From Candidatus Nanoarchaeia archaeon (GTDB lineage: Archaea; Nanobdellota; Nanobdellia; Woesearchaeales; DATDXC01), in NCBI GenBank assembly GCA_035289425.1, contig DATDXC010000038.1, positions 732 through 64,731 of the forward strand: DNA of 64,000 bases. The letters are read 5' to 3'. The position numbers were made by a program, and so were the translations under genes. This document shows, piece after piece, positions 469 through 21,435 of the stretch. Each line of letters begins with the position of its first letter. Positions within the stretch are counted from its first letter, which is position 1. The notes under the pieces are model-generated. The model was not told the DNA's origin. It saw nothing but the letters and a program-made list of their open reading frames with translations, and searched no databases.

Positions 469-915
469 GTGAACATGAACGGAAAAACATTGACCATTTT
501 ATTATCAGTCGCCTTTGGGGTTGCAGCAATATTCAAGATGGTTCCTGATTTGGAGGTTGCAATTGGCTTTCTCACTATCTCCTTTGGCATTTTGGCTATT
601 ATCTGGACAGCTATGTCAGTGGGCGCTTTGTCTAAAGGCTCATCATTGCGGAAGCATACGGTGTATTTCCTCATCTCTCTGATATCCATCTTGTTGTTCT
701 CGATCTGGCATACCCTCTCGAAGATTCTTGGCTGGCGCCAGACCATAGTGGAAGCATGGATGTATCCTGGCTACCTGTTCCTTGCAGCCTCTTTCATAAT
801 CTTCGTATTTACCGCATACCAGGTGCTTCAGATGGGTCACCAATTTGGTTTTTCTGGCCAGGCACGGAAAATACAGAAAGTAATGGCATCAAAATCCAAA
901 AAGGCCGCCCAGTAG
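469..915 (+). CDS. small polytopic membrane protein, unknown function
   Basis: 148 aa with about four hydrophobic TM-length segments. Starts 4 nt after the upstream stop (operon-like). Converges on and slightly overlaps the platform gene on the other strand. Confidence 0.4.
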   Translation: MNMNGKTLTILLSVAFGVAAIFKMVPDLEVAIGFLTISFGILAIIWTAMSVGALSKGSSLRKHTVYFLISLISILLFSIWHTLSKILGWRQTIVEAWMYPGYLFLAASFIIFVFTAYQVLQMGHQFGFSGQARKIQKVMASKSKKAAQ

Positions 916-1863
916 ATTCTTCATAAGGTACCTTGATGCAAAAAAGATAGCAAGGCTGATTGCAATCAGAACGGGGAGAAATTTCAATCCCTCTCTTTCT
1001 TTGCCCTTTGAAATTGAGCCTAGAATCAGTGACCCCAGAACACATGAAGTTATCAGGAAAATGACTGCAAACCTAATGACGAAGTCGACTGAGATTGCGA
1101 CTTCGGTAAAAGTCAGCGGCAGGCTCGCCTGGGCTGTTTCAGGAATGTCTATGCCTGCAATGTTTTCAGTCAGGACCTCCACCAGGAATGAACTGAGTCC
1201 AAAGAGTGCTGGCGCACCCACTGCAATGGCAACGAAAATAAAGATAACATACATCATGGCATTTGCCTTGATCCGTTCATCGACTAGCATTTCCTGACGC
1301 AGGTTGCGGGCTGTCTGCTCCAATAACGCCGCAAGCTGGCCACCTGCCCTTAAACCAGATACTATGAGGGACATGGTCTTTGCCAGCCGTTCAGACTTGA
1401 TCCGTGTTGACATATTCATTAGGGCAACACCCGTGTCCTTGCCCGTGGTAATCTCCTTTCCCACTTGGTTTATTTCATCCTGAAAAGGCCCGAATTCTGG
1501 CCGGGCTGCCAATAACAGCGCCTTGTCTGTGGTAAATCCTGCCCTCAGGTTGGAAGCCATCAGCTGGAGCACATCAGGCAAAATACTTTCGACAAATTTT
1601 GATTTTGCATCTGATCTGAGCACCAAAATAAAATAGGTGAGAAGCTGCAGCATCAGGAAATAGGAAAGGAAAGCAACAATGAGCTGTATCCTGAACCAAG
1701 CACTGGTGAAAAAGGCAAGCACAGCGGCGAGCAGTAGGCTACATACCAGTATGAACCCCATGAATCGCAAAGGGTTCACTTTTACATGGGAATACCTCAG
1801 CAGATTGACATAATCTTGCTTGACTTTCTGCGGATAGAATCGGGATAAGAAATGGTATAGCAT
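889..1863 (-). CDS. type IV pilus assembly platform membrane protein, TadC/FlaJ/EpdJ-like
   Basis: 324 aa. Cytoplasmic T2SS-F-like helical domain (...LLEQTARNLRQEMLVDERIKANAMMYV...) followed by TM helices. Directly downstream of a paralogue and of the GspE/FlaI ATPase in one minus-strand operon. Confidence 0.65.
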   Translation of the reverse strand: MLYHFLSRFYPQKVKQDYVNLLRYSHVKVNPLRFMGFILVCSLLLAAVLAFFTSAWFRIQLIVAFLSYFLMLQLLTYFILVLRSDAKSKFVESILPDVLQLMASNLRAGFTTDKALLLAARPEFGPFQDEINQVGKEITTGKDTGVALMNMSTRIKSERLAKTMSLIVSGLRAGGQLAALLEQTARNLRQEMLVDERIKANAMMYVIFIFVAIAVGAPALFGLSSFLVEVLTENIAGIDIPETAQASLPLTFTEVAISVDFVIRFAVIFLITSCVLGSLILGSISKGKEREGLKFLPVLIAISLAIFFASRYLMKNLLGGLFGF

Positions 1864-1864
1864 C

Positions 1865-2755
1865 CTAATCTCCCAACAGGTTGGGCCTCCTTGATTTTAT
1901 AATGCCTATGAACATGAGCTGGAAAAAGAACACCATCCCATACAGGCCCCAGAATATCAGTTTAGTTGCCCCAGGCGACAAGGCGAGGAATGAAGAAAGT
2001 ATAATCAGAAATGTCATGCCCAGCGAAGGAGCAATGACGACTGCGAGCATGTAGAACATGGCAAGCGGATTGAGCTGGCTTCCGTACCGCTGAATCTGCA
2101 GCACCTGTTCTTCAGCTAAAAGATTTAGAATCTCTCCAATAACTCCGGTCATGTCAGATCCTGACTTAATGCCGTTGATCAGTTGCCAGACAGCTCTCCT
2201 GAAAAAAACCGAGGGATTGACCGCTGCCACGTCTTCCAAGGTTTCAATCTGCGGTTTTCCCGCATTAATCTCCCGGACTACCTTGGACATCTCAATAGAA
2301 ATCTCGCCATACTCTTCTTTGGAAATGTTGACCAAACTTTCAAACAACGGCACACCTGAGTTCAGTTGAATCAATAGATTCTGAAGCGCCGGCAGAATGT
2401 TTTGCTCTATGCTCTTGATGCGTCTGCTTGCATGTATCTTGGGATAATAGAGCTGCTGCATGAATACAAAGAGAGCAAATACCAAGGGAATAAACAATCC
2501 GATCAGAATGAAATTTTCCACACCCGCAATCAGGAGCAGGATATTCAGCAGGAATGCGAAAAATATGTAGAATAGGACAGTTGCCGTGTAACAGAGGCTT
2601 AGGTATTCCTTCGGCGTAAACTGGAATTTTGCCTGGCGCAGATTCACCTTGAGAAACGGAAACAGGTTTTGGGATCTTTCAGCAGCGCCTAGAAAAAAAG
2701 GAGAGCCCTTCTCCAATACTTGCACGGGAACCAATGAATAGGGCATGCGAAACAT
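1865..2755 (-). CDS. type IV pilus assembly platform membrane protein, TadB/FlaJ/EpdK-like
   Basis: 296 aa paralogue of the adjacent gene (T2SS-F-like domain + TMs). Two ~300-aa platform proteins plus one ATPase is the Tad/Epd arrangement. Confidence 0.6.
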   Translation of the reverse strand: MFRMPYSLVPVQVLEKGSPFFLGAAERSQNLFPFLKVNLRQAKFQFTPKEYLSLCYTATVLFYIFFAFLLNILLLIAGVENFILIGLFIPLVFALFVFMQQLYYPKIHASRRIKSIEQNILPALQNLLIQLNSGVPLFESLVNISKEEYGEISIEMSKVVREINAGKPQIETLEDVAAVNPSVFFRRAVWQLINGIKSGSDMTGVIGEILNLLAEEQVLQIQRYGSQLNPLAMFYMLAVVIAPSLGMTFLIILSSFLALSPGATKLIFWGLYGMVFFFQLMFIGIIKSRRPNLLGD

Positions 2756-2759
2756 TTCA

Positions 2760-4262
2760 TCAACCTATCAGTTTTTTGGGATCTACGTTTTTCGTTACCC
2801 CTTTTACAATGAAGTCATTGTCGAGATAATATTGGGAGAGAATGCTTCCTACCTCATTCAGCTTTCTCAAGTTGTGTTTTACCAGATAGCTCAGAATTGA
2901 TTTTTTTGTTGCAAGATCCTTGTTTATTTCAGCCTGACTTAAACCAGTATGCCTGCTAAGGTCTTCAAATAGCCTGACTGGGGGGGCATGCGGCACCATA
3001 GTGTCATTTGAAGGCTTCCATCGGTATATAATATTCCCTTTACAAGAAACTTTGCCTCCATCTTCAGTAGTGATAAACTCTCCGAGCTGATATACCCGCC
3101 TTATGCCCCTTCTTCGCTCCCGAAACATTACTACGTTTAGATTAACTGCCCCTAAAAGATTTGCAGGAACGTCAATGGGTGGATTAGTGAGCCGCTGAAT
3201 GGTTTCATTTGTGGAATCGGCGTGGATAGTGGCATAGACGCTGTGGCCGGTGTGCATTGCTTCGAAGAGGACCTCTGCTTCTCTTTTTCTCCTGATCTCT
3301 CCTAAGATTATCTTGTCGGGCCTCATTCTCAACGAATTTATGAGCAGATCAAGCATGGTAACTTCTCCCTTGCCTTCTGGATTAGCCTGTCTGGTTGTCA
3401 ATGGACACCAGTATAAAAATTTTGGAAGCTGGAGCTCTCTGGTATCTTCGATGCTTATGATGCGCTGGTTTGGTGGCATGAATGGTGTACACACATTCAA
3501 GAATGATGTCTTTCCTGAACCAGTGCCTCCGCTTATAAGGACATTCATCTCATACTGTATCGCTAACCATATAAGTGCAAATATGTTAATGTCACCGGTC
3601 TTATTATTGATAAAGTCAGTTACCGTCCATGGGTCCCTGGCAAATTTTCTGATGGTAATGGTGTGGCCCTTGTTTGATATGGGATATAAGACTGCATTTG
3701 CCCTGTCTCCGGTAATGAGGTGGGCATCCAGCAATGGGTTAAGGGTCGTTACCTGCCTGCCAACCCTTCGCGCGATCATATTTGCGAAATTTTGAATCCT
3801 ATCTTCTGATTCCATAGTCAGATCGGTGAGGAGCCAGCCATACTTCTTATGATAGACTCGTATAGGTTCTGTCGCTGAGTTTATGATGATCTCTTCGAGC
3901 TCACCATCATTGAGAAGGAATTCCATGGTGCCAAAGCCCAGCATGTCATGCACTAGATGCCCGATGAGGAATTGGGCAGTCGATGGCTTGATGCTCGGTA
4001 CTTTGCTCTTAAAGAGTTCGGCTGCTTTCAGCCTGAATTTTTCCTTGAGACTGTCCATAACTTTAGGATCCAATATCTCCGCAGCACTCACCTTTACTTC
4101 AGTGATGAGGCTGTCCCTGACTGCATTAGTTAATGCTTTGGTAGGTGGAGTTATAGCAGGCACAACTACCTTATACCTCATCTGTTTGTCTTCATCAGCC
4201 TGGATATGCACCTGGGCCTGGACGCCATCAGCTTCTATGTTGTATGTCTCTAGTTCTCGCAT
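2760..4262 (-). CDS. type IV filament assembly ATPase (FlaI/TadA/GspE family, EpdL-like)
   Basis: 500 aa. Walker A GGTGSGKTSFLN, Asp-box RIISIEDTRELQL, Walker B DKIILGEIR, His-box ATIHADS. An N-terminal domain is present. Confidence 0.9.
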   Translation of the reverse strand: MRELETYNIEADGVQAQVHIQADEDKQMRYKVVVPAITPPTKALTNAVRDSLITEVKVSAAEILDPKVMDSLKEKFRLKAAELFKSKVPSIKPSTAQFLIGHLVHDMLGFGTMEFLLNDGELEEIIINSATEPIRVYHKKYGWLLTDLTMESEDRIQNFANMIARRVGRQVTTLNPLLDAHLITGDRANAVLYPISNKGHTITIRKFARDPWTVTDFINNKTGDINIFALIWLAIQYEMNVLISGGTGSGKTSFLNVCTPFMPPNQRIISIEDTRELQLPKFLYWCPLTTRQANPEGKGEVTMLDLLINSLRMRPDKIILGEIRRKREAEVLFEAMHTGHSVYATIHADSTNETIQRLTNPPIDVPANLLGAVNLNVVMFRERRRGIRRVYQLGEFITTEDGGKVSCKGNIIYRWKPSNDTMVPHAPPVRLFEDLSRHTGLSQAEINKDLATKKSILSYLVKHNLRKLNEVGSILSQYYLDNDFIVKGVTKNVDPKKLIG

Positions 4263-5269
4263 TTTCCTATCTCTATTTCCCCGATAATGGGATAATTTAT
4301 TTTGACAAGGTTTTGTTCTTCAAGAATCGATGCCCATTCTTCTATCACTTTCTTATCCACTTCGAAATATTTTGACAAGGCAGAAAGCTTTACATACCCT
4401 TTCTGCTGCACTATTTTACAGAGCACATCTAGTTCGGTCTCGTTACCACTGAGGGGGATCTTCAGCTGCTTTGGCAATTCGTGCAGCGCCACAATCTTTG
4501 GCCTCATAACCTTCTTTGTTTGTTCCTGGGGCATAGGTTTCTGAGTCGTTGACTTTGGTTTTCTTCCCAAACTGGTAAAAGATACAATCATGCCTAAAAT
4601 CGAAACAATGATTGCGATTGCTTGTTTTATGATAACCGAAATTATAAAAACCAGGAGGGATATTATCAACAAAGCAAGCATAACCTGCTTCTTTGTTATA
4701 TGCTTCTTTTCTCTCGTTGTTTCAGATTTTGAGGGTCTGAAGCCAACGAGGGACATCAACGCGACTATACCGAAAAGCACTGCTCCGGTTGTATTTTTAA
4801 TATATAATGAATATCCTAATAGGGCTATAGAGATACAAAGGAGGAAGAGAGAAATTTTCTTTTTTGGTAGTTGTCGTATCTGAGGTTTGTGTGATATAAC
4901 CACTTTTTTATGCTTGAGCCTTCCCAGCAATGTTATAACATACAATAAGGTGCCTGCTCCCATCCCTAACCAGCTCTGGTAAAAAAAGGCAACGCTAAAT
5001 ATGAGTATGGCGGCTAAAGCTATCAAAGCAGTTGGTAACGGGTGGACTTTCTTTTTACGGCGTTTGCTATGGCGGTGGAGCTTGTGCCAAAGGAACAAGC
5101 CATCCAGGATGATTATGCCTAATACCCCATAGATGAGGGTTGTTGTTGATAATGGTATTTCAAAATACCTGATTAGGAATACGGCTGCCGTACCAAGAGC
5201 AAGGACGAGTACCAGCGGGACAATTACTTTTTTCTTGGACTGCGGACTAGTTTTTTTCCCCACCCTCAT
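4250..5269 (-). CDS. polytopic membrane protein with C-terminal winged-helix-like domain (candidate pilus-locus component)
   Basis: Overlaps the start of the ATPase gene by 13 nt (operon). Multiple TM helices separated by K/R-rich loops. C-terminal ~60 aa (ELDVLCKIVQQKGYVKLSALSKYFEVDKKVIEEWASILEEQNLVKINY) look like a wH/HTH fold. Start placed at the internal ATG (MRVGKK...); the upstream in-frame ATG at 5422 is the alternative. Confidence 0.45.
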   Translation of the reverse strand: MRVGKKTSPQSKKKVIVPLVLVLALGTAAVFLIRYFEIPLSTTTLIYGVLGIIILDGLFLWHKLHRHSKRRKKKVHPLPTALIALAAILIFSVAFFYQSWLGMGAGTLLYVITLLGRLKHKKVVISHKPQIRQLPKKKISLFLLCISIALLGYSLYIKNTTGAVLFGIVALMSLVGFRPSKSETTREKKHITKKQVMLALLIISLLVFIISVIIKQAIAIIVSILGMIVSFTSLGRKPKSTTQKPMPQEQTKKVMRPKIVALHELPKQLKIPLSGNETELDVLCKIVQQKGYVKLSALSKYFEVDKKVIEEWASILEEQNLVKINYPIIGEIEIGKCEN

Positions 5270-5603
5270 GCATATACTATGCAGGAGGCATTTTTTAAAG
5301 ATGTGTATTAATCTTTTAATAGTGACTTCTTCAGATGAAAATGGGGGGCCCGTAGAAATCTTCTCGGCTACGCCTTGGTTAGTGTCAGGTTTGGCTTCGA
5401 TGTTTATGGCCATTACCCACATACTGAGAAAATTTCATTTTCTGGTACTTCACTCACTGCGTTCGGAAGTTTCCCTGACGGAGCCTCCCCTTTGTCGGTT
5501 TTACCTCATAATGGAAGAGCCTCACCGATTGACACCAACTTTAGGATTTCTACGGGCCAAAATATGATTAAATTTAAATATGACAGTTTCCCCATTGTAA
5601 AAA
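5270..5603. promoter_or_regulatory. divergent intergenic promoter region of the pilus locus
   Basis: 334-nt non-coding spacer between divergently oriented genes. A TTTAAATA TATA-like box lies ~30 nt upstream of the pilin ATG at 5604. Confidence 0.35.
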
Positions 5604-6014
5604 ATGGAAAAAAGAGGTCAGATTAGTCTTGAGTATATGCTTATTGTGGGGATGGCAACACTCATTGCCGGTTTTCTTCTGGTGATGTCCCATTATTATT
5701 CCCGCCAGGTTGAAGATGTAATCAACACCAACCAACTGGATAGAATAGTGAAGGAAGTGGTGGATACTTCTGAGTCTATGTATTATTTTGGAGAGCCTTC
5801 GAAGACAACGCTTAAAGTGTACATTCCCACTGGGGTAAATTCGGTTACGATAAACAGTCAGCAGCTTACCTTCAATGTCAAGACCCAGAGCGGCGATACT
5901 GATATTTTCTATTCCTCTTCTGTTCCACTGCAAGGAGACTTAGCCATCACACCTGGTTTTCATTTTGTTACCATTGAGGCGAAGGGGGGGTATGTGTGGA
6001 TAAACAGCACCTAA
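5604..6014 (+). CDS. minor pilin-like protein with class III signal peptide (EppA-type, Gln+1)
   Basis: N-terminus MEKRG|QISLEYMLIVGMATLIAGFLLV: K/R-G cleavage site, Q at +1, E at +5, aromatic at +6, then a hydrophobic helix. 136 aa. First gene of the overlapping operon. Confidence 0.7.
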   Translation: MEKRGQISLEYMLIVGMATLIAGFLLVMSHYYSRQVEDVINTNQLDRIVKEVVDTSESMYYFGEPSKTTLKVYIPTGVNSVTINSQQLTFNVKTQSGDTDIFYSSSVPLQGDLAITPGFHFVTIEAKGGYVWINST

Positions 6015-6388
6015 GGGCACAGGGTGCCATGGAATTTATGGTTCTGGCAGGAATACTTCTGCTGCTGTTTGCAATCATCATGGGGATTTTTGGCTCCCAG
6101 GCCTCTGATACCAACAAGCAGAAGATACTGCTGCGGGCAGAGGATGTGGTAGTCAAGATCCAGAAAGAAGTTCATCTGGCAGCGCGGGTCTTAGATGGGT
6201 ATTCCCGGGAGTTTACGCTTCCACAGCGGATAGTCAATAAGGAATATACACTCACTATCCAAGGGGACGAGATTGTGCTTCATGTGATGGATGATGATTT
6301 TTGGCGGACCATCCCTCCAGTAGTCGGCAATTTTACTTTAGGCACTAACACAATCAGGAAAGCAAATGGAATCATTTACCTCAACTAA
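5996..6388 (+). CDS. minor pilin-like protein with class III signal peptide
   Basis: N-terminus ...RA|QGAMEFMVLAGILLLLFAIIMG (Q+1, E+5, F+6). Overlaps the upstream gene by 19 nt. Confidence 0.65.
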   Translation: MDKQHLRAQGAMEFMVLAGILLLLFAIIMGIFGSQASDTNKQKILLRAEDVVVKIQKEVHLAARVLDGYSREFTLPQRIVNKEYTLTIQGDEIVLHVMDDDFWRTIPPVVGNFTLGTNTIRKANGIIYLN

Positions 6389-6869
6389 GGCTCAGGTATG
6401 GAGCATAGACTTTTTTGTAGCGATTGTTATCTTAGTAGGAGCTCTCTTCATATTCTACCAACAGGGTTTGTTTGAACTCAACAGACAACAGCAAGACATC
6501 AATGATTTGGTCTTGGATGCTAAGGTTGTCTCAAACTATTTAGTTTCTGCTGGATATCCAGCCAACTGGACTGAAAGCAATGTCAGCCTCATCGGGCTTA
6601 CTGATGGCAGCCTTGCATTGGACGAAACAAAGATAGATAGCTTCGCTGCGTTGGCGGCTGCCGATTATACCACCAGCAAACATCTGTTGTCGACATCCCA
6701 CAACTTTGAAGTTTTTTTTGAGGACCGAACCAATGCGACTTTGACCATACATGGCGTATCCCGCATTGGCGCAGACTACAGCGCTGCGGATCCTGATAAT
6801 GTCATCAGAATTGTCCGCTTCGTGTCCTATAATTCAGAGATAATAAAAATGGTGCTGTACGTATGGTAA
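6366..6869 (+). CDS. minor pilin-like protein (class III-like N-terminus)
   Basis: N-terminus ...TKA|QVWSIDFFVAIVILVGALFIFY (Q+1, acidic residue at +6). 167 aa. Overlaps neighbours on both sides. Confidence 0.55.
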   Translation: MESFTSTKAQVWSIDFFVAIVILVGALFIFYQQGLFELNRQQQDINDLVLDAKVVSNYLVSAGYPANWTESNVSLIGLTDGSLALDETKIDSFAALAAADYTTSKHLLSTSHNFEVFFEDRTNATLTIHGVSRIGADYSAADPDNVIRIVRFVSYNSEIIKMVLYVW

Positions 6870-9800
6870 GAAAAGGATTCTTCTACAGTTTGGATGCATT
6901 GATCGCAGTTATGCTCATATTGGCAGTCTTGGTATTGATACCCGTGTTTTACATCAACAAGGAAGAGGCCACCAATCCGGTCTATTATTCTTCAGATATA
7001 ATCCAGCTTTTGTCTACCCTGACTCTTGTAGAGATCAACAACAGCGATGTTCAGACACTGCTCAACACCAGCAACATCACCAACTATAACCGGAGCATCA
7101 TTGAGCAGGTGCTCCGTTTTCAGGTGGCGGGTGATGAATATAGGGCACAAAAACTGCTAAACCTCACTATTGAAGGTCTTACTCCTCGTCAGTTCACTAT
7201 CGGGGTATACATTGAAGGATACTCTGATCCGTTGTTTGTATCCTCTAATAACAGCGTGCATCAGCTGATCTCTTCCAAACAGATGATCTCAGGTATAGAG
7301 AAAGACAGGGCTGTGGAAGGGCTCACTTCCCGGGTATTCCTTTCCGGCATAAATGAGATGACCTCATCGGTATACATCTACTTTGGAGGATACATCGGAG
7401 AGGGAAACATAACCAGGATACTGCAGCTTCCATCCGGAATTAATGATGTTACCTCAGGATATTTGGAACTTGATGCAAGCGCTAATTTCACCCTATTCCT
7501 TAATGGAGAATATGCGGGATATTTTGGGGTGAGCGCCACCAACGCATCAAACCTTTCCGCTGACCATTGGGATATGGAGGCATCTTACCTTTTGAACCTG
7601 CATTCGGGTGCCAATACCGTTGAGCTTTTCTTCAATGATACTTCCCATGGTTATATCGGTGGTGGGTATATCAGGTTTACCTATGCATCAACCGAGCTTG
7701 ATCTTTATAATGATGCGGGGGAATCCACTTATTGGTTTCCAGGTATTGAAGGAATAATAAATGTATATGACTCATTTTATGTGCCTGGCACTTTACATGG
7801 GGCTGAGATATTCCTCCATCTCTTATCCAATGCTCCGGTTTTCCTTTCTGTGGGTAATTCTACTATTGTGGAAATCAATGCGTCTGCTTCAAGCCAGCAG
7901 ATACTGCTCAACTCCACCTATATCAGTTCTTTGTTAGATTTTACTTCCTTAGGTATGCGGACTGTTCCGCTTCGTCTCGGGATACGAAACGTCAGTTTCA
8001 CTCTAGGGGGCAAATCAGATGCTGTTCTTACCACAGACCGCACTGGTTCCATGAACGCCTGCGATGTTGAAATCAGCTGCTCAACTCCAGGCATCTGCGA
8101 TTCGACTGCTACGTGCCATGAGCGCAGGGATAAGGTAGCCCAAAGCTCTGATCGAACATTCATCAATGAGATGCTTTCGGTTGAGGGAAATACTGTAGGA
8201 CTGATTGGTTATGGCATGCGGTCAAACCCTGTCTGTTCCTTTACGTACCTCACTGATGAAAATAACACCTTACAGCAGCACATTGATGATTATTATGGAG
8301 AATGGTGCGGTTACACATGTATATCGTGCGGCATTGTGTCTGCAGCTGAGCTCTTAGTAGAGAACAAGATGCTGCACGGCAGCAACCAAAAGACTGCTGA
8401 GGATCAGACTGAATATCATGTCGGGGACAGCGGTCCTGTATCAGTAACAGAAAATTTGGACCTCACTGTAAATCATTCTGCTTTTGTAAAAGCTCAGCTC
8501 AATGTGTTTGCACGCAGCATTGATACAGAAAACAACTACAAGGATTGTGTATTTTTCAATGACCATTACCTTGGCAGACTGTGCGAATCTAATGATGATG
8601 GCAGCACCGGATGGCACACTTGCAGTTATCCTATTTTGGAGGAGTGGCTTCCGTCCTCAGGCGCAGTTTCCGGATTATGGAGCATCTCTTCCCAGGCAGA
8701 GTTCCAACAATGCAGTCTTTCTGATATAGATGTAAATAGTGTACCAGGAAGCGCTCAGCTCAACCTTGAGGGTGCCTGGATGGACAGTGATTATACAAAA
8801 CGGCGGAAATTAACTTTTGATAATAGTGCGCAGAGTGAAATCCTTGAAGGCTTCCCGGTTATTATTTCATTGGATAACAGCAGGGTTGATTATAGCCAAA
8901 CTCAGAATCAAGGACAGGACCTTCGCTTCACAAATAGTGCCGGCATGCTGTTGCCTTACGAAATTGAGAAATGGAATGAATCAGGCATATCTTCAGTATG
9001 GGTCAAGGTTCCTTCTATTGCCGGATCTTCCAATGCAGACTACGTATGGATGTATTATGGAAATCCTGCTGCAGCAGATAATCAAAGCAGTTCTGTCTGG
9101 GGCGACTATGCCGCAGTATGGCATATGGCATCAAATCAGGATTCTTCTCCTAATAATAATGACCTGAGCTGTACGAACTGTCCTGCAGCGACTGGCAGCT
9201 CATATTGGTATGATGGCAGCAATGACCGTCACTTGGTCGCAAATTCAAACCTGATAAATACAGGTGGTCCCTGGGACAATAAAACCATTGAGATATTATT
9301 CAAGGCAGATACCATAGGCTCAGGCGCCAGTAAGGATATACTCTATGAGCAAGGAAGCAGCACCAAGGGATTAAACCTATATGTAACTGGCACTTCCCTT
9401 TACGTAGGTGGGTGGAATAGGGATTCTAGCCAGAGCAATTGGGATGGGACTTGGTTGAGTGCTGGCATCAATACCGGAACCTGGTATTATGCTGTATTGG
9501 GGCTACAGGATGGGGATAATTCCGCATGCGCTGACTGCCTCAAAGGGTTCCTGAATGGACAGGAATTCTCATCTGGTGACGGAAGGAGATTATACAGCAA
9601 CACCGGAAATATTCAGATAGGTTTTGGAGACACGCGTATGCATTCTGGGACTAGTGGAGAGGACGATTATGATGGTTTTATTGATGAACTTCGTCTGACC
9701 AATAAAGCATTGTCTGCTGATTGGATCAAAGCCCAATACCTTTCATTAACTGATTCTTTTATCTCCTATGGTGATGAAGAAGTTGAGGCAGGCATATCAC

Positions 9801-11722
9801 AAAGTTATGTCCCTACTGGTTTACTATTGTCTCCGGTGTTTGATTCAGGAGGATCAGCCACATGGGGCACTATTACCTGGACTGAAAGTGTGCCTCCTGG
9901 AACAGACATAGTCATAGAGATTAGGACAGGCAATAGTGCATCGCCTGATGCAACCTGGGATAATTATGGCTGGGGTGACTCAGTTTATACCTCTTCTGGC
10001 ATTGTAGCCCAAGCACCAGGCAGGTATATCCAATGGAGGGCAAATATGAGCACTACTGACGGTAATGTAACTCCTCTATTGCAGGATGTGAGCATAAGCT
10101 ATTCTGTCGAGCAGACTGGTACCAACAATATAACCTTAACAGGCGCAAACATCTACGATTGCTTCGGAACCTCAGGAGAGCAGGATGATTGGGATTTCAA
10201 GAATGTGCAGCTCGTTGCATGGGAGTGGCCTGTTGACATACAGAAATCCAATCACTTTTTAGCTGGACCAGTGACCTTGGGAGAGAGTTCTCTATCATAT
10301 ACTACTTCATTCAATCCGGGTGTTATGCCTGAATTTATGAAATCTGGTGTGCTTACCTTTGATGCATTGGGTTCTGCTCCAAATTATTATGACTGTGTAT
10401 TCGTCAACAATAATTATATCGGCCGGATGGACGAGCAGAGATACTATGAAGGAAATCTGTGGAATAATGTCAGTTTTGATGTCCCCTTATACGCATTGAA
10501 TGATTCTACTGTCGATATTCGCATCACTTCAGGAACAGTTGATGGATGCCAGCTTACTTCAGGCACTAATGATGGCTGGCAGTTCCAGAATCTGAATTTT
10601 ACACTGCGATGGAGCAATACTACCTATACTTATGACCGGTATATGTCAATGTTGGTTATGAGTGATGGACAGGCAAACACTAAGATAGGCCATCGGAGCA
10701 GCTATGACTCTGCTAATGCCGATAATGAGGCAGTACAAAAAGCCTGCCGGGCCTTTGAGGATTATGGTATCAGGATTTATTCAGTGGCATTTGGCAGCGG
10801 GGCTGAAACTGGAACCATGCAGAGCATTGCATGCTGTGATGACTGCAGCCATGCCTACAACGCAAACAATGCAGAGGAGCTCACCTCGATTTATAGTACG
10901 ATAGCTAATAACATCATTGAGCTCCAGTTTGAGGAACAGGCTGCAAATATAACCGGTAATATAAGTACCATTCTTTATACCGATTCCTATATCTCCTTGG
11001 ACTACACTCCAGAAGGGGTGTCCTCTCAGTATGGGAGGCTGCCTGTCACCTTGGAAAGCGATCCATTTGGAAACAGTATAAGCGCGGCTGATTTTGAGGT
11101 GCCCCCCGGCACTGTAGTGTATGACGCCAAGTTAACTTCCTACTCTGGCCAGCGATGGACTGACCGAGCTGCCATCAAGAATGAAACCACACCTTGGAAT
11201 TATTTCTACAATCTTTCACATTATGGACTCCAATATTCTTTATTAGGAGATCCGTACACACTCAATGTGCCCATTAGTTATGTCAGCTCAGGGAATAACA
11301 GCGTTTATGTTTCTACCGCGCAAGGGCCTGGCAACATTTCAATTGGTTCTCCAGACAATAGAGTGATATATACATTAGGTATCGATCTGCAGATCAATTA
11401 TACGGGCGTGTTCGGCAGCGCTGATGGGTGCTCATGGACAGTAACTTTTGATGATGGGAGCCAAACAACGGTACCTATACCCGAGACCTATACCGGTTCC
11501 AAGACCTGTATCTTCACCAATACATCCAATTGCAATATTGATCATAACACCGATGCGATTGACAATGCTGTCTGTCATCTCTTCTCCCAGCTTGACTTTG
11601 ATGATGATGGCATGCTCTTCGTCAAATTCGGATCTGGAGATATAGGGGTAGAATCGTTCTCCATCGGGAAGATACCGTTCATGTGGGGACCAACTATCTT
11701 TGAGGTGAGGGTGTGGAAATGA
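6863..11722 (+). CDS. giant pilin-anchored adhesin: TadG/PilY1-like protein with split vWA domain, DUF2341-like and LamG/ConA-like domains
   Basis: 1619 aa. N-terminus MVRKG|FFYSLDALIAVMLILAVLVLIPV is prepilin-like (F+1, D+6). The N-terminal half of a vWA domain sits near aa 385-510 (DAVLTTDRTGSM MIDAS motif ... GYTCISCG). A DUF2341-like segment sits near aa 640-740 (KLTFDN...GFPV...DLRF...LPYEIEKW...VWVKVP...YVWMYYGN). A LamG/concanavalin-like jellyroll sits near aa 760-970. The C-terminal half of the vWA domain sits near aa 1265-1360 (SMLVMSDGQAN...GIRIYSVAFGSG...). At least ~35 N-x-S/T sequons and many Cys. Confidence 0.85.
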   Translation: MVRKGFFYSLDALIAVMLILAVLVLIPVFYINKEEATNPVYYSSDIIQLLSTLTLVEINNSDVQTLLNTSNITNYNRSIIEQVLRFQVAGDEYRAQKLLNLTIEGLTPRQFTIGVYIEGYSDPLFVSSNNSVHQLISSKQMISGIEKDRAVEGLTSRVFLSGINEMTSSVYIYFGGYIGEGNITRILQLPSGINDVTSGYLELDASANFTLFLNGEYAGYFGVSATNASNLSADHWDMEASYLLNLHSGANTVELFFNDTSHGYIGGGYIRFTYASTELDLYNDAGESTYWFPGIEGIINVYDSFYVPGTLHGAEIFLHLLSNAPVFLSVGNSTIVEINASASSQQILLNSTYISSLLDFTSLGMRTVPLRLGIRNVSFTLGGKSDAVLTTDRTGSMNACDVEISCSTPGICDSTATCHERRDKVAQSSDRTFINEMLSVEGNTVGLIGYGMRSNPVCSFTYLTDENNTLQQHIDDYYGEWCGYTCISCGIVSAAELLVENKMLHGSNQKTAEDQTEYHVGDSGPVSVTENLDLTVNHSAFVKAQLNVFARSIDTENNYKDCVFFNDHYLGRLCESNDDGSTGWHTCSYPILEEWLPSSGAVSGLWSISSQAEFQQCSLSDIDVNSVPGSAQLNLEGAWMDSDYTKRRKLTFDNSAQSEILEGFPVIISLDNSRVDYSQTQNQGQDLRFTNSAGMLLPYEIEKWNESGISSVWVKVPSIAGSSNADYVWMYYGNPAAADNQSSSVWGDYAAVWHMASNQDSSPNNNDLSCTNCPAATGSSYWYDGSNDRHLVANSNLINTGGPWDNKTIEILFKADTIGSGASKDILYEQGSSTKGLNLYVTGTSLYVGGWNRDSSQSNWDGTWLSAGINTGTWYYAVLGLQDGDNSACADCLKGFLNGQEFSSGDGRRLYSNTGNIQIGFGDTRMHSGTSGEDDYDGFIDELRLTNKALSADWIKAQYLSLTDSFISYGDEEVEAGISQSYVPTGLLLSPVFDSGGSATWGTITWTESVPPGTDIVIEIRTGNSASPDATWDNYGWGDSVYTSSGIVAQAPGRYIQWRANMSTTDGNVTPLLQDVSISYSVEQTGTNNITLTGANIYDCFGTSGEQDDWDFKNVQLVAWEWPVDIQKSNHFLAGPVTLGESSLSYTTSFNPGVMPEFMKSGVLTFDALGSAPNYYDCVFVNNNYIGRMDEQRYYEGNLWNNVSFDVPLYALNDSTVDIRITSGTVDGCQLTSGTNDGWQFQNLNFTLRWSNTTYTYDRYMSMLVMSDGQANTKIGHRSSYDSANADNEAVQKACRAFEDYGIRIYSVAFGSGAETGTMQSIACCDDCSHAYNANNAEELTSIYSTIANNIIELQFEEQAANITGNISTILYTDSYISLDYTPEGVSSQYGRLPVTLESDPFGNSISAADFEVPPGTVVYDAKLTSYSGQRWTDRAAIKNETTPWNYFYNLSHYGLQYSLLGDPYTLNVPISYVSSGNNSVYVSTAQGPGNISIGSPDNRVIYTLGIDLQINYTGVFGSADGCSWTVTFDDGSQTTVPIPETYTGSKTCIFTNTSNCNIDHNTDAIDNAVCHLFSQLDFDDDGMLFVKFGSGDIGVESFSIGKIPFMWGPTIFEVRVWK

Positions 11723-12681
11723 ACAAGAAGGGCATGTACTTCACTATATTGACCATTGGATTCCTGCTTATATTTATCTTTGTTTTCGTCATTCCCGGCT
11801 ACAGCAGGCTTGGTGAGAAGATGGCAGTGACTGAAATGCGAGTTGATTCCATGAATGATTTTATTAAGGATCTGCAGCGCGATCTTGAGCGAGGCTTGTA
11901 CATCTCTTCTTTTCGTTCCATAATGGCCATGGAGCAAAGGGTCATTAACACTGGTACTTTCTTGAATGACAGCGAGCACAGCTTTAAGGAAGCCTTGCTC
12001 AATGGAACAGTTGAAGGCATAAATTCAAGCCTTATGGTCGCATCCAAGTTCACAAGCTGGATTGAGAATGTGCAGTCTGAAGCTTCCAAGCTCAATATTG
12101 AAGCTGGTGTGGAGCTGCATGAGGTAAGGGCGTATCAAATAGAGCCATGGAAAGTTTCGGTATGGGTAAATCTTAGCATCAATGTTTCTGATTCAACCGG
12201 CATTGCCTCATGGGAGAGGGAAGAGATTATTGAAACTCAGGTAAAGATAGCAGAATTTGAAGATCCATTGTATGTGGTGTACAGCTTAGGCCGAATCACT
12301 AATATAATAAATATCACACCCTATGGAGACAATTACACCTACAAACAGGGGGACACCTGGTATGTGGATAACTTCATGGACCATATCAATGATTCCTACT
12401 ACACATTTAACCCGGATGCTCCCAGTTTTCTTATGAGATTTGAAAGCAATCTTTCAGGGTCTTCATGCTGCGGCATTGAAAGTCTGGTTAACCTAAAGGA
12501 GCTGGAAAGCGTTGGCTTTTCAGGTTCAGAAATACATACCCAGAGCAGTCTGGTTGACCATTATTATTGGGTAGGTATGACTAATGGCGAATACCGCATT
12601 AATCTCACCCCCTCCTGGGTTAAGCTTGATGGGGATCATCTAAGCACTTATGATGTTGTCGGACTGTCATATCCTGAGTAG
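11713..12681 (+). CDS. minor pilin-like protein (prepilin-like N-terminus), 322 aa
   Basis: N-terminus ...NKKG|MYFTILTIGFLLIFIFVFV. Overlaps the giant gene by 10 nt. Last gene of the minor-pilin operon. Confidence 0.6.
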   Translation: MEMNKKGMYFTILTIGFLLIFIFVFVIPGYSRLGEKMAVTEMRVDSMNDFIKDLQRDLERGLYISSFRSIMAMEQRVINTGTFLNDSEHSFKEALLNGTVEGINSSLMVASKFTSWIENVQSEASKLNIEAGVELHEVRAYQIEPWKVSVWVNLSINVSDSTGIASWEREEIIETQVKIAEFEDPLYVVYSLGRITNIINITPYGDNYTYKQGDTWYVDNFMDHINDSYYTFNPDAPSFLMRFESNLSGSSCCGIESLVNLKELESVGFSGSEIHTQSSLVDHYYWVGMTNGEYRINLTPSWVKLDGDHLSTYDVVGLSYPE

Positions 12682-12846
12682 GGCTCTGTAGAAAATCTAG
12701 CTATAGCTCGAGTTAGCAGCTTCAAACCTTGGAAGACATAATCGGGAAACTGACATATCCCCGACCGGGACTACTCCCTTGTCAGTTCGTTATTTGATTA
12801 AATTAGGTTTGACCCAAGGCTGCTAACCTACATTTTCTACAGAGCC
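12682..12846. mobile_element. MITE-like element (165 bp) with 15-bp terminal inverted repeats and 9-bp target-site duplication
   Basis: TIRs are GGCTCTGTAGAAAAT (12682-12696) and ATTTTCTACAGAGCC (12832-12846). Extended imperfect arms of 39 and 28 nt share GTTAGCAGC. Flanking direct repeats CCTGAGTAG lie at 12673-12681 and 12847-12855; the left copy contains the TAG stop of the upstream gene. No ORF inside. Confidence 0.55.
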
Positions 12847-12855
12847 CCTGAGTAG

Positions 12856-12953
12856 ACAAAATAGTATACTAGTATATAAAACCAAAAGATTTAAATAGGT
12901 GCTCTGCCAGTGACCATTTACATATAATTCAGTCCATTAAACGAGGTGAAAAA
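12856..12953 (+). promoter_or_regulatory. major pilin promoter/leader region
   Basis: AT-rich with a TATACTAGTATA perfect palindrome (12865-12876) and several TATA-like boxes (TATATAAAA, TTTAAATA, TACATATAAT). GAGGTGA ribosome-binding site 6 nt upstream of the ATG. Confidence 0.4.
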
Positions 12954-13421
12954 ATGGCAAGGAAAGGACAAGCAGCCATGGAATTTTTGATGACCTATGG
13001 TTGGGCTATCTTGGTTGTCTTGGTAGCTATTGGTGCACTGGCATATTTCGGAGTATTGAATCCGGATACATTCTTGCCTGAGAAGTGCGTCATTAGTTCA
13101 GGAAGCGGTCTGTTCTGCGATAAGTTCAGCGTGTCTTCTGGTACCAGTATACAGCTGAAGGTATCCAACTCACTCGCTGAGGCAGTTACGCTAGAAGCAA
13201 GCGGTTCATCAATCTCACAGGGAGCAAATAGTTGCACCTTAGCTGCAGATACTGCAGTTACCGCAGACAACTCTTCAACGCTCACATTCAGCGGTGGAGG
13301 AACCTGTGCAACATTGACTGCAAGTGGCGCTAAAATCAAGGGAGACATCACCCTGGTCTTTACTGATTCAGATGGATTCTCCAAGACCACAACCGGAAGC
13401 TTGGTTGCGAAAGCACCATAA
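12954..13421 (+). CDS. major type IV pilin, class III signal peptide (EppA-type)
   Basis: MARKG|QAAMEFLMTYGWAILVVLVAIGALAYFGV is a textbook archaeal class III signal peptide (KG|Q, E+5, F+6). 155 aa. Ser/Thr/Gly-rich C-terminal domain with N-x-S/T sequons. Own promoter and strong ribosome-binding site; oligo-T tract after the stop. Confidence 0.8.
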   Translation: MARKGQAAMEFLMTYGWAILVVLVAIGALAYFGVLNPDTFLPEKCVISSGSGLFCDKFSVSSGTSIQLKVSNSLAEAVTLEASGSSISQGANSCTLAADTAVTADNSSTLTFSGGGTCATLTASGAKIKGDITLVFTDSDGFSKTTTGSLVAKAP

Positions 13422-13446
13422 ATTTATTTTTTTTACTTTTTTTAAA
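13422..13446 (+). terminator. oligo-T tract (archaeal-type terminator) after major pilin gene
   Basis: ATTTATTTTTTTTACTTTTTTTAAA immediately 3' of the pilin stop codon. Confidence 0.4.
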
Positions 13447-13653
13447 ATGAAACTGAGAAGACGGACGATCGGCGACTTATACCTTGCTGCTTCTATATTA
13501 TTCATTTTCTTGTCTTTTGTGTATTCGGGGGCTTTTGAAAGATATGACTTTGCTTTTGCTTTCTTAGTCATCGGACTATTGGTGGCTTTGTTTGGAGCAA
13601 TTACTAAGAGAAAACTTATTCAGCAGGAACATTCCAGGAAACGAAAGAAATAG
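13447..13653 (+). CDS. small two-TM membrane protein, hypothetical
   Basis: 68 aa (MKLRRRTIGDLYLAASILFIFLSFVYSGAFERYDFAFAFLVIGLLVALFGAITKRK...). Two hydrophobic helices and a basic C-terminus. The ORF-track version (13324) overlaps the pilin gene; the internal ATG is used here. Confidence 0.3.
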   Translation: MKLRRRTIGDLYLAASILFIFLSFVYSGAFERYDFAFAFLVIGLLVALFGAITKRKLIQQEHSRKRKK

Positions 13654-14736
13654 CTATTTGATATATCCTTTCTTATAGAGCAGTTCAGCATTCAATATGC
13701 CGCCACCTGCTGCACCCCTCACTGTGTTGTGGGATAATCCGACGAACCTTATGTCAAAGATGTTGCAGGGCCTTAGCCTGCCGACTGTGACAGCCATTGC
13801 CTTATCGTTGTTCCTGTCCAGTTTGGTCTGAGGCCGGTTGTCCTCTTCCTCATAGATTATAGGCTGCTGAGGGGAAAAGGGGAGGTCTAACTCCTGCGGC
13901 ACTGATTTAAATTCTTTCCAAATTCTTTTTATTTCATCTACTGTTGGAATGTTGCCCTTGAAGTTGACGCTTACGCATGCCATGTGACCATCGGTAACTG
14001 GAACCCTATTGCAATGGGCAGAAATTGTTATTGTATCATTGTTCTTGATCCTGCCCTTCTCTATTCTGCCCAATATCTTTAGGGGCTCTTTCTCTGATTT
14101 TTCTTCCTCGCCGCCTATATAAGGAATCACATTATCTATTATTTCAGGCATGGTGTCAAAAGTTTTTCCTGCTCCTGAGATGGCCTGCATGGTGGTTATG
14201 ATCATCTTGTCTATTGCGTATCCTGCTTTGAGCAGGGCGTAGATTGGCGTTAGGTAACTTTGCACCGAACAATTTGGCTTAACTGCAACAAATCCTTTCT
14301 CCCACCCATGTGCTTTCTGCTGCTCAGGGATTATATTGATATGTTCATGGTTTATTTCAGGAATCAACATAGGGACATTATCGGTCCACCTATGGGCAGA
14401 ATTGTTCGAAACAACCGGAATGCCTGCTGCGGCATATTGGTTTTCGATATCTCTAATCTCATCTTTTTCCATCTCAACTGCCGAGAATACAAAGCTTACC
14501 TCATTTGCTTCTTCAACTTTAGATACATCGTGGACTATTAAGTTCTCTATACTTCTTGGAATCGGTGTTTGCATTGCCCATCTTCCTGCCAGTGCTTCCT
14601 TATAGGATTTACCAGCTGATTTGGGAGACGCAGCTACATAAGAAACTTCAAACCAAGGATGGTTTTCCAATAGCCTGATGTAATTCTGGCCAACCATGCC
14701 GGTTGCTCCTAGTACGCCTACTTTTAGCTTTGACAT
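13654..14736 (-). CDS. asd: aspartate-semialdehyde dehydrogenase
   Basis: N-terminus MSKLKVGVLGATGMVGQ (NAD-binding). Length and conservation match the Asd family. Start placed at the internal ATG; the longer ORF to 14802 adds an atypical 22-aa extension. Confidence 0.85.
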   Translation of the reverse strand: MSKLKVGVLGATGMVGQNYIRLLENHPWFEVSYVAASPKSAGKSYKEALAGRWAMQTPIPRSIENLIVHDVSKVEEANEVSFVFSAVEMEKDEIRDIENQYAAAGIPVVSNNSAHRWTDNVPMLIPEINHEHINIIPEQQKAHGWEKGFVAVKPNCSVQSYLTPIYALLKAGYAIDKMIITTMQAISGAGKTFDTMPEIIDNVIPYIGGEEEKSEKEPLKILGRIEKGRIKNNDTITISAHCNRVPVTDGHMACVSVNFKGNIPTVDEIKRIWKEFKSVPQELDLPFSPQQPIIYEEEDNRPQTKLDRNNDKAMAVTVGRLRPCNIFDIRFVGLSHNTVRGAAGGGILNAELLYKKGYIK

Positions 14737-14964
14737 TTTGACATCCAAATATTTGTGTTTATTTTCCGGAATCAATAGTTTACGCTTTTTGCCTCCCAGC
14801 AAAATGCTGGGTTTGCGCTGTAAATCGCAAAGACCAAAAAATTCTCTGAGAGAATTTTTTGATTATATTGGTTTGGCGTAACAATCTATTTTAATTACAC
14901 CTCACATTTAAGTTAAGAACAAAATGTTTGTTTATAAAGATATTGTTAAGATGGTAACAACACC

Positions 14965-16170
14965 CTAGAAAAAGCGGGGTATACCATTTTTTAGAATATC
15001 ATCTAAGTTTGCTTGGGTAAGAGGTTTTCCCTGGACTGCTAGGGCACCACCTGCATTAATTGCAATCAAAAGTTCTTTAGGTGTGGAAACTCTTCTTGTG
15101 ATTAATCGGACAATTCCGGTTGCTAATGATTTGTCTCCAGTTCCGACACTTGCTCCGCCCTCTTCCACATCAAACGAGGGTACGATGGAAGTTGTATATG
15201 TCCAATCATGATTACTGCCCCCACTTACTTGGCTAAGGTCAGACAAATTATTATTATCCCACGTAAATGCAGTGCTCCCGGCAGGCCCATTCTTAAAAAT
15301 TACTATGCCTGGTCCACTTTCAGCATAGCCCAATTGCACAGCCATCCGTTCAAAGGGCATTCTTCCTGTTAAATGATATGCTTCTTTTGCGCTTGGTGCA
15401 AATATATCGATAGATCTTCCAAGGTAAGGCCCCCAATAGCCATCAAGTCCTATGTTCCTCATCCTTTTTAGGTCTCCTCCTGTATCAAGAACTGTTAAGG
15501 TTTTACGTCTCTTAAACTCTTCAAACAGAACCCGTATACCTGTGCCTGATCTCAAGCACATCGAACGTGCAATGTTCAGATAGTAAAATGTTGCTGCCTG
15601 AATCTGGCAGGGATCTGCGGCTCCCATATAATCAGGTGCATATGCATTGTTAGCAACACCAGGCGAGTGAATAAAACTTCTCTCCAAATCACCTGATTCT
15701 GTCTTTCTCACAACCGCAACAGTTCTTGCTGTTCCTCCCTTTAATGGGAAGCATCCTGACATGTCTATGCCTGCTGCTTCGCCGCTTTCTATCAGATACT
15801 TTGCAGAAGTATCATATTCTCCACCATCGGTTCCCAGCGCAAAGAAACCGCCTGTGCTCGGCAGCCCTAACTGGCGCGCATAGCCAGCAACGAACAGCAA
15901 AGCATTCAACCCGCCACCTGGATTTCTCTCAACATACATCCCTTTGATGCCATTGGGATCTTCTCTAAACAAACCAGATCCGGCCATCTGGTTTGTGGAC
16001 CTTTCAAAGATCTCTGCATCATCAGTTTCATTTAAGCCCCCCTCATCTACCGGAAAGCCAGGCACTTTTTCCCTAATTTGAGCATAGGCAACTCCTGGTT
16101 TTGCGTGATAGACCTGGTCATCAACCGCTAAGCCGACCGCTGCCAGCGATATTGGTTTCTTTGTTGACAT
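14965..16170 (-). CDS. PfkB/ribokinase-family carbohydrate kinase (diverged, N-terminal extension)
   Basis: GG-motif region NPGGGLNALLFVAGYARQLG...ALGTDGGE. C-terminal anion-hole-like VGTGDKSLATG. 401 aa. Confidence 0.55.
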   Translation of the reverse strand: MSTKKPISLAAVGLAVDDQVYHAKPGVAYAQIREKVPGFPVDEGGLNETDDAEIFERSTNQMAGSGLFREDPNGIKGMYVERNPGGGLNALLFVAGYARQLGLPSTGGFFALGTDGGEYDTSAKYLIESGEAAGIDMSGCFPLKGGTARTVAVVRKTESGDLERSFIHSPGVANNAYAPDYMGAADPCQIQAATFYYLNIARSMCLRSGTGIRVLFEEFKRRKTLTVLDTGGDLKRMRNIGLDGYWGPYLGRSIDIFAPSAKEAYHLTGRMPFERMAVQLGYAESGPGIVIFKNGPAGSTAFTWDNNNLSDLSQVSGGSNHDWTYTTSIVPSFDVEEGGASVGTGDKSLATGIVRLITRRVSTPKELLIAINAGGALAVQGKPLTQANLDDILKNGIPRFF

Positions 16171-16172
16171 TT

Positions 16173-18622: not shown

Positions 18623-18630
18623 TTACTTTT

Positions 18631-19632: not shown

Positions 19633-19638
19633 TTTTCA

Positions 19639-21231: not shown

Positions 21232-21435
21232 CTTTTTCACCTTATTCCTTTCAAATAATTTATGATGCTCACCGCCATACGGATGCGACCAATACGGCAG
21301 TAATACATTCATCGTTGATCATGAGTTTTTATATTTCTATGATTAACTATTTTTCAAAACTCTTTTTTAAAATCCCCTGAAAAAATTATACCTTAAAGTT
21401 GGTTTATTATTTATAAATATTTGTATTTGACTGAC

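Follow-up and report, generated by a model that had tools for sequence, protein, structure and literature searches.

A giant pilin-like protein with a probably split vWA domain, encoded in a pilus operon of a DPANN-type archaeon

The window analysed here is a stretch of 64,000 nucleotides from a Candidatus Nanoarchaeia archaeon (contig DATDXC010000038.1, positions 732 to 64,731 of the forward strand), and the gene in question is a single, uninterrupted open reading frame (ORF) at 6863..11722 (+) that encodes a giant protein of 1619 amino acids (aa), starting MVRKGFFYSLDALIAV. It is the fourth of five overlapping, co-directional ORFs that lie next to genes for a pilus assembly ATPase and platform proteins (Table 1). 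An earlier note, made from the letters alone, had described the product as a pilin-anchored adhesin whose von Willebrand factor A (vWA) domain is interrupted by other modules. Using the ORF list and the translation of the window, with residues numbered along the 1619-aa protein, we found the ORF and the named motifs where the note had placed them: DRTGSM at aa 392, GYTCISCG at aa 483, SMLVMSDGQAN at aa 1262 and DCVF at aa 561 and 1177. In Pfam, a DUF2341 domain (PF10102; E 1.7e-12, 48.1 bits versus a cutoff of 23.4) and a Laminin_G_3/concanavalin A (ConA)-like lectin domain (PF13385; E 4.1e-7, 30.7 bits versus 27.6) were detected, together with the C-terminal part of a VWA domain just below the cutoff, much as the note had anticipated. 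It had also mentioned about 35 N-glycosylation sequons and many cysteines, and we counted 35 N-x-S/T sequons and 27 cysteines; the enrichment in sequons is modest yet real (composition-preserving shuffles contain 21.8 +/- 4.0 of them, and 35 or more in 3 of 5000 cases). No NCBIfam model matches the giant protein or its partner genes. A phmmer search of the whole protein against PDB sequences likewise gave no match, and a family profile was needed to reach them. A scan for sigma-70 promoters and terminators stayed at background level, the sigma-70 model being uninformative for an archaeon.

Table 1. Features of the giant gene and its pilus locus (window positions; fractions give the occurrence among 83 related loci, many of which end at contig ends; a slash marks the end of the leader; AF2, AlphaFold2; pLDDT, predicted local distance difference test)
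Feature	Residues (aa)	Position	Strand	Basis and occurrence
Whole gene: putative modular pilin-like vWA adhesin, 1619 aa		6863..11722	+	ORF list, translation, relatives
Class-III-like signal (MVRKG/F...) and hydrophobic N-terminal helix	1-30	6863..6952	+	Sequence, family spacing
Conserved N-terminal scaffold (beta-sandwich domains after a small helical bundle)	31-382	6953..8008	+	Aligns to all 99 relatives
Probable vWA N-half (beta1 to alpha3)	383-504	8009..8374	+	MIDAS columns conserved, profile match to Mfa5, AF2
X1: first ~100-aa beta-domain copy (DCVF aa 561)	505-612	8375..8698	+	hhalign versus X2
DUF2341 domain	684-742	8912..9088	+	Pfam PF10102
LamG/concanavalin-A-like jelly roll	806-956	9278..9730	+	Pfam PF13385, Foldseek
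Further beta-rich module, no family	966-1085	9758..10117	+	AF2 strands, low to moderate pLDDT
X2: second beta-domain copy (DCVF aa 1177) with extensions	1086-1258	10118..10636	+	hhalign versus X1
Probable vWA C-half (beta4 to alpha6), MIDAS D1268	1259-1355	10637..10927	+	
Conserved C-terminal beta-rich domain	1372-1619	10976..11719	+	Aligns in all relatives
Minor pilin, 136 aa (MEKRG/QISLEY...)		5604..6014	+	Pfam Class_IIIsignal (PF04021), E 2.3e-6; 61/83
Minor pilin-like, 130 aa		5996..6388	+	Sub-threshold DUF7266, E 9e-6, 25.9 bits versus 27.6; 51/83
Minor pilin-like, 167 aa		6366..6869	+	Weak sub-threshold DUF7287 match; 62/83
322-aa protein, basic leader and hydrophobic N-terminus (MEMNKKG/MYFT...)		11713..12681	+	Translation; 76/83
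Candidate major pilin, 155 aa (MARKG/QAAMEFLMTYGW...)		12954..13421	+	Translation; 43/83
390-aa multi-pass membrane protein		4250..5422	-	About 7 hydrophobic segments; 29/83
Pilus assembly ATPase		2760..4262	-	Pfam T2SSE, E 1.2e-33; 53/83
Two platform (TadC/FlaJ-like) genes		889..2755	-	Pfam T2SSF in both ORFs

A homolog search across ~5.8 billion proteins gave 101 matches (P numbers below), 99 of which share the conserved N-terminal ~500 aa and C-terminal ~360 aa of the query. P0001 is an identical 1619-aa protein from an independent ENA contig, and NCBI, ENA and JGI are the sources of three full-length relatives (46-55% identity at 100% coverage). These matches bear on the possibility that the long ORF has arisen by chimeric assembly or by fusion of separate genes and its vWA-like pieces derive from different proteins, for which only the unusual length and an N-half without a Pfam match can be cited. 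With an identical copy on an independent contig, full-length relatives from three sources, inserts at the same site in 99 relatives, an uninterrupted frame and halves that assemble in a structural model (see below), we rejected this explanation as having next to no probability.

The central claim of the earlier note was that two distant segments are complementary halves of a vWA domain. Our results agree: the two pieces are very probably halves of one Rossmann-type domain that is interrupted by an insert. Relatives of ~900 aa align, unbroken in the subject, to query aa 1-500 plus 1255/1282-1619, and insert-free relatives give one contiguous Pfam VWA match above the cutoff that spans the junction (e.g. 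P0082, where aa 484-624 correspond to profile positions 34-173). The Pfam VWA match in the query covers aa 1263-1345, equivalent to positions 107-173 of 174, i.e. the C-terminal ~40% of the profile; its N-terminal vWA half has no Pfam match and is homologous to the N-half of the contiguous, Pfam-positive vWA of the shorter relatives. In two relatives with other inserts both halves are recognised by Pfam, in P0031 as VWA_2 (profile 4-92), MAM and VWA (profile 100-173), and in P0087 as VWA_2 (3-89), Reelin-B, CBM_4_9 and VWA (104-173). With the family profile, the N-half matches the vWF sequence of Mfa5 (E 8e-9) and the C-half matches PDB 4rck (E 8e-12).

The predicted structures, a check that the earlier note had proposed, point the same way. 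The AF2 model of aa 370-1400 has a mean pLDDT of 74.7; in the vWA halves and the pair of beta domains next to them the values exceed 90, and the strands and helices follow the order beta1-alpha1-beta2-beta3-alpha2-alpha3-beta4-alpha4-beta5-alpha5-beta6-alpha6 of a Rossmann-type fold. As the N-half comprises ~120 and the C-half ~100 residues, structural superpositions need both halves in one fold. In Foldseek, PilB, a modular pilin, is the top PDB match of the insert-free homolog (E 3.7e-13); the pilus tip adhesins PitA, Mfa5 and SpaC come next. The vWA halves are also the best-conserved regions of the protein, with 64-72% identity to P0002-P0004 versus 45-55% elsewhere. Outside the vWA domain, the AF2 model of the insert-free P0020 (pLDDT 83) resolves the conserved scaffold into helices 36-103 and strands 112-369 at the N-terminal side (pLDDT ~85-95) and a ~245-aa beta module at the C-terminus (strands 652-900, pLDDT ~85-93).

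The MIDAS (metal ion-dependent adhesion site) is distributed over both halves. The N-half contributes D392-x-T394-x-S396 and, within GYTCISCG, T485, with a Cys-rich arm at 397-421 between them. No substitution of D392, S396, T485 or D1268 occurs in any of the 63 aligned sequences, while position 394 is Ser in 45 and Thr in 18 of them, the query being among the latter. Judged by these residues the motif D-x-S/T-x-S ... T ... D is complete, and a metal site is predicted. Of the cysteines around the site, C400, C406, C412 and C418 in the arm that follows the DxTxS loop (window 8051-8125) are mostly conserved. Directly after the MIDAS Thr lies a C486-x-x-C489 pair (aa 482-489, window 8306-8329), both cysteines of which are invariant in 63/63 sequences. 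The arm and the pair could form disulfides or a second metal site adjoining the MIDAS.

Where the chain leaves the vWA fold can be read from a comparison of models. In P0020, alpha3 (aa 488-501) is followed after 6 residues by beta4 (aa 508-515); the query equivalents are aa 487-503 and aa 1260-1267, so the excursion spans aa ~505-1258, i.e. the ~750 aa with DUF2341 and LamG of which the earlier note had spoken. According to the model, the insert thus occupies the alpha3-beta4 loop, the chain exiting the fold at about aa 504 and re-entering it at about aa 1259. Its modules follow in the order X1, linker, DUF2341, LamG, beta module and X2. X1 and X2, both all-beta, are modelled at a pLDDT of ~85-97 and >90, respectively; the former was found in 21 of 65 aligned relatives and the latter in 34-40 of the 65, including those with ~195-aa inserts. 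The note had listed two copies of a DCVFxNxxYxGR repeat here. Self-BLAST of the 1619-aa protein revealed no internal repeat; an hhalign comparison of aa 508-612 with aa 1127-1224 gave a probability of 98.9% (E 1.4e-17, 98 columns), and by this alignment the repeat belongs to a real duplication of a ~100-aa beta domain. Between the two copies, the best Foldseek match of the query insert is the lectin module of Streptococcus sanguinis PilC, and trans-sialidase lectin domains were also found. The module at aa 966-1085 has no Pfam match and is 45-53% conserved in P0002-P0004.

Outside the vWA halves and the insert, the conserved beta domains at the N- and C-terminal sides show a weak recurrence of the motif pattern of X1 and X2 (hydrophobic-N-G-x-x-hydrophobic-G ... 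L-x-x-G-x-N-x-I). The hhalign probabilities of X2 against the conserved N-domain (aa 182-256) and the C-domain (aa ~1465-1490) are 52% and 40%, weak values from which we draw no claim, and the scaffold as a whole may perhaps consist of repeats of one jelly-roll type.

Among the 99 relatives, the length of the insert at this same loop ranges from 26 to 1820 aa, and its composition forms a graded series: no insert (26-63 aa), X2 only (~195 aa), X1 and X2 (~300 aa, e.g. P0008), and X1 and X2 with cargo between them. The cargo itself differs from relative to relative, being 3-keto-disaccharide-hydrolase-like (ConA-like) in P0005-7, MAM in P0031, Reelin-B with CBM4_9 in P0087 and LamG in P0083; P0005, for instance, reads X1, a different cargo, X2, and P0083 carries the 1820-aa insert in the longest relative (2667 aa). 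Among the 101 matches, P0100 is the sole one outside the scaffold family to carry DUF2341, and it aligns to the insert alone. The alpha3-beta4 loop therefore looks like a swappable display site. Canonically, helix alpha3 and strand beta4 of a vWA domain are connected on the side that faces away from the MIDAS, where the N- and C-termini of the domain are also found, so cargo at this position should not occlude the metal site.

The surroundings of the giant gene are those of an archaeal pilus. The ORF of the 130-aa minor pilin-like protein overlaps both of its neighbours, the stop of the 167-aa gene overlaps the start of the giant gene, and the stop of the latter overlaps the start of the 322-aa gene, its most tightly linked partner, homologs of which (316-321 aa) lie downstream in the related loci L001 and L002. 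At the position of the 155-aa candidate major pilin, L002 has one or two genes of ~152 aa. The membrane protein, the T2SSE ATPase and the two T2SSF genes are divergently transcribed from the pilin operon, and the gene order matches in L001-L003, including the surroundings of P0002 and P0020. Two platform genes with many pilins have been described as the signature of the archaeal type IV filament (TFF) 'system 1' of methanogens and DPANN (bioRxiv 10.64898/2026.04.22.720090). The giant gene is a conserved member of a pilus operon. The 390-aa membrane protein, which sits between the ATPase and the pilin operon, where L001-L003 have a gene of 288-301 aa, belongs to no confident family in Pfam or NCBIfam; its loops are very rich in lysine and arginine, and it may be an uncharacterised assembly component.

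No second paralog of the giant gene was found in the window by tblastn. The genome of the closest relative (L001, contig CAZDZV010000004.1) has tandem vWA-scaffold paralogs in one operon, at 4856-9043 (1395 aa, with VWA_2/Laminin_G_3/VWA matches) and 10001-14878 (the 1625-aa P0002), with a 316-aa partner gene between them, so one pilus locus can encode two adhesins with different inserts. Beside the pilus machinery, a KaiC/RecA-like DUF7504 gene lies at 49-465 of the window, and L002 holds three such ATPase genes at 1548-3669, which agrees with an earlier proposal of KaiC-family regulators for archaeal pili (PMC4858521). Downstream of the pilus operon (13654-21312, -) follow genes for aspartate-semialdehyde dehydrogenase, GFO/IDH/MocA-type oxidoreductases and an FGGY sugar kinase. 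A similar order of semialdehyde dehydrogenase, GFO/IDH/MocA and FGGY genes is kept in L001, indicating that synteny reaches beyond the pilus genes. Further on, adjoining ORFs for a nucleotidyltransferase (NTP_transf_2/Polbeta with an N-terminal helix-turn-helix) and a HEPN protein (21984-23082) are a probable HEPN/MNT toxin-antitoxin pair.

Relatives of the giant protein are widespread. A scan of one genome per GTDB species found them in at least 523 species-level genomes, of which nearly all carry a DPANN label; among the 523 stretches, the 80 best have titles that name almost exclusively Woese-, Pace-, Nano-, Aenigmat- or Altiarchaeota. In the 101-match search, all named proteins are archaeal with the exception of P0069, which is labelled Chloroflexi. 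Many TPA_asm metagenome-assembled genomes with a relative (L006, L008, L015, L018 and others) are titled 'uncultured Methanosarcinales archaeon', a label that is probably a placeholder or mis-assignment and not a true euryarchaeal occurrence.

The earlier note had taken the start of the protein for a prepilin-like segment, and comparison within the family agrees with it. The N-terminus reads MVRKG/FFYSLDALIAVMLILAVLVLIPVF, i.e. a short basic leader ending in [KR]-[GA] and then a ~20-residue hydrophobic helix, an arrangement kept in the family. Among the 84 relatives with a recognisable S-x-D/E core motif, 74 have Asp or Glu exactly 6 positions after the Gly/Ala of the leader ([KR][GA]-x5-[DE]), and the AF2 model of P0020 begins with a 29-residue helix (residues 2-30). 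Together with the minor-pilin, ATPase and platform genes around it, these features would fit cleavage of the giant protein by a class III peptidase and its incorporation into the pilus.

From these observations we consider it likely that the giant protein is a modular minor pilin and that, in this DPANN-type archaeon, it serves as the tip adhesin of a type IV pilus of the Epd-like ('system 1') kind. Its leader would be cut by the class III signal peptidase, and the N-terminal helix would fix the protein in the tip of the pilus, alongside the three small minor pilins and the 322-aa partner, by analogy with the complexes described for S. sanguinis PilB/PilC and predicted for Caulobacter crescentus CpaL-CpaJ-CpaK. 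The cargo would hang from the 'bottom' of the vWA domain on a hairpin stalk formed by X1 and X2, leaving the MIDAS face free. The protein could then have two binding activities, a metal-dependent one of the MIDAS for an acidic ligand and a lectin-type one of the cargo for a glycan, and would mediate attachment to surfaces or host cells, with cargo exchange tuning the specificity.

Several observations weigh against this proposal. The Pfam VWA match of the query reaches 23.1 bits, 0.7 below the gathering cutoff of 23.8. The cargo region of the model has low confidence (pLDDT 35-85), because only four sequences cover the cargo, and we infer from topology only on which side the insert lies with respect to the MIDAS face, and that X1 pairs with X2. 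At the N-terminus, neither Class_IIIsignal (PF04021) nor another pilin model of Pfam matches at E <= 1, nor does any NCBIfam model; the acidic residue stands at +6 and not at +5 as in the neighbouring pilin and in bacterial pilins; and in the homolog model the N-terminal helix is followed by a helical bundle and no classical pilin head. No prepilin peptidase gene was recognised by Pfam in the pilus locus and its immediate flanks, and a hydrophobic-segment screen of the remaining ORFs of the window (23.6-63.2 kb and four elsewhere) gave no convincing candidate. Cleavage, pilus incorporation, tip location and ligands are all things that we infer.

The unmatched Class_IIIsignal model, the acidic residue at +6 and the lack of a recognised peptidase gene in the locus would be easier to understand if the protein were a cell-surface adhesin or a component of the pilus base that keeps its N-terminus as an uncleaved signal anchor and is co-expressed with the pilus while remaining outside the filament. 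Its size would be another argument (a filament subunit of 1619 aa, or of 2667 aa as in P0083, would be large), and TadG was once proposed to be a membrane anchor of the pilus (cited by Makarova et al., PMC4858521). However, a short basic [KR][GA] leader with a rigid acidic spacing in 74/84 relatives would be needless in an ordinary anchor, the gene is translationally coupled to and tightly syntenic with minor pilins, and bulky modular pilins such as PilB have been found on pili experimentally (PMC8179133). We therefore regard an uncleaved anchor as rather unlikely, and prefer the tip adhesin.

A different division of labour is suggested by the conservation pattern. The vWA halves are more conserved than the rest, the invariant C486 and C489 beside the MIDAS Thr recall the force-sensitive disulfide discussed for PilY1 (PMC12607857), and the existence of insert-free members means that the cargo is dispensable for the core function. 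All this could mean that the vWA scaffold acts mainly as an assembly primer or mechanosensor (like PilY1 and, as proposed, CpaL), the insert being the sole adhesive part or serving in shielding or passage through the surface layer. Adhesion would be compatible with such a role, but an intact, invariant MIDAS is the classical ligand-binding site and the closest structural relatives are adhesins; a scaffold that mainly primes or senses thus seems to us unlikely, and we keep to the modular tip adhesin.

As a tentative extension, possible rather than probable, the alpha3-beta4 loop might be a DPANN-wide site of cargo display on an X1/X2 stalk at the pilus tip, where the exchange of lectin or carbohydrate-binding modules (CBMs) would determine the host cell or surface glycan that is recognised by an episymbiont. 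Integrin I-domains transmit conformational change at the very face from which the cargo would hang, so on this reading pulling on the bound cargo could also couple allosterically to the MIDAS or to pilus dynamics.

DPANN archaea are mostly obligate episymbionts, and to our knowledge it is largely unknown how they find and hold their hosts; the family described here is a concrete candidate for this step. Since its members join an invariant MIDAS to a loop in which lectin-type modules of very different kinds find room, it offers a candidate determinant of host or surface specificity that can be read from sequence. With this family, the 'modular pilin' principle would reach beyond bacteria into archaea. 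Finally, nature provides an example here of a permissive domain-insertion site for protein engineering, a vWA loop in which inserts of 26 to 1820 residues are tolerated.

The nearest known counterparts are bacterial. S. sanguinis PilB is a pilin with a grafted MIDAS-containing vWA module that binds host proteins and is experimentally pilus-borne (PMC8179133), and S. sanguinis PilC is a minor pilin with a ConA-like lectin module (PMC9934059); structures are available for both (PDB 7b7p/7ba2 and 7oa7/7oa8). The earlier note had set the fusion of a vWA domain to a pilin anchor, and the nested domains, against what bacteria have, a contrast that PilB shows to be overstated. PilB and PilC carry one module each, C-terminal to a classical pilin head, whereas a single chain of the giant protein contains both vWA and lectin, the latter nested within the former, and its signal resembles the archaeal class III type and not the IPR012902 type found in PilB and PilC. 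The text of the PilB paper never mentions archaea, and its survey of modular pilins is framed as bacterial (PMC8179133).

A split vWA has likewise been predicted before, in CpaL, a TadG-like minor pilin-like protein of ~630 aa of the C. crescentus Tad pilus (vWA at 148-203 and 384-626), where the domain is split early and contains one beta-rich domain of ~180 aa (PMC12607857). The giant protein differs in that the split lies in the alpha3-beta4 loop, the insert has ~750 aa and five modules, and large extra beta domains are present at the N- and C-terminal sides. Tad pili probably derive from archaeal Epd-like pili, which makes the parallel in the predicted split vWA notable. The Tad (PF13400) and TadE (PF07811) N-terminal domains have no Pfam match in the giant protein; we therefore describe it as similar to CpaL and TadG in its way of working and do not count it as a member of their family. 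As it would work like bacterial PilB and CpaL/TadG, the principle is already known.

In sortase and type V pili, the tip adhesins that carry a vWA domain (RrgA, GBS104, SpaC, PitA and Mfa5) belong to unrelated assembly systems. On the top face of these, short arms flank the MIDAS, in contrast to the multi-domain insert in the alpha3-beta4 loop of the giant protein, and in the RrgA type the vWA itself is nested in an immunoglobulin-like domain. With PilY1/PilC of bacterial type IVa pili, tip-associated adhesins or mechanosensors that can carry an N-terminal vWA, the giant protein shares its modular variation and presumed place; PilY1 is, however, a non-pilin defined by a C-terminal beta-propeller, for which the giant protein has no Pfam match, and the modular variation in PilY1/PilC is N-terminal. 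Here too we describe a similar way of working and no membership. In archaea, large DUF2341-containing proteins (arCOG03508) were predicted to be tip adhesins of Methanococcus-type (Epd) loci by Makarova et al. 2016 (PMC4858521). Our locus has in common with these an ATPase, two platform genes and many minor pilins, as well as DUF2341 as cargo, the domain on which the argument for an adhesin was based there. The same paper mentions vWA only for cytoplasmic regulators (ArnB type) and bacterial TadG, and no vWA scaffold or split domain (PMC4858521); the 2026 TFF survey does not mention vWA (bioRxiv 10.64898/2026.04.22.720090), and a full-text literature search on vWA in DPANN pilins returned a Candidate Phyla Radiation (CPR) paper only. 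Within the searchable literature, the archaeal family and its variable insertion site thus appear to be undescribed. Four features set the protein apart from the bacterial precedents: it comes from an archaeal lineage, it has a large scaffold conserved at its N- and C-terminal sides, its vWA is interrupted at alpha3-beta4 and not early in the domain, and its insert is large and interchangeable.

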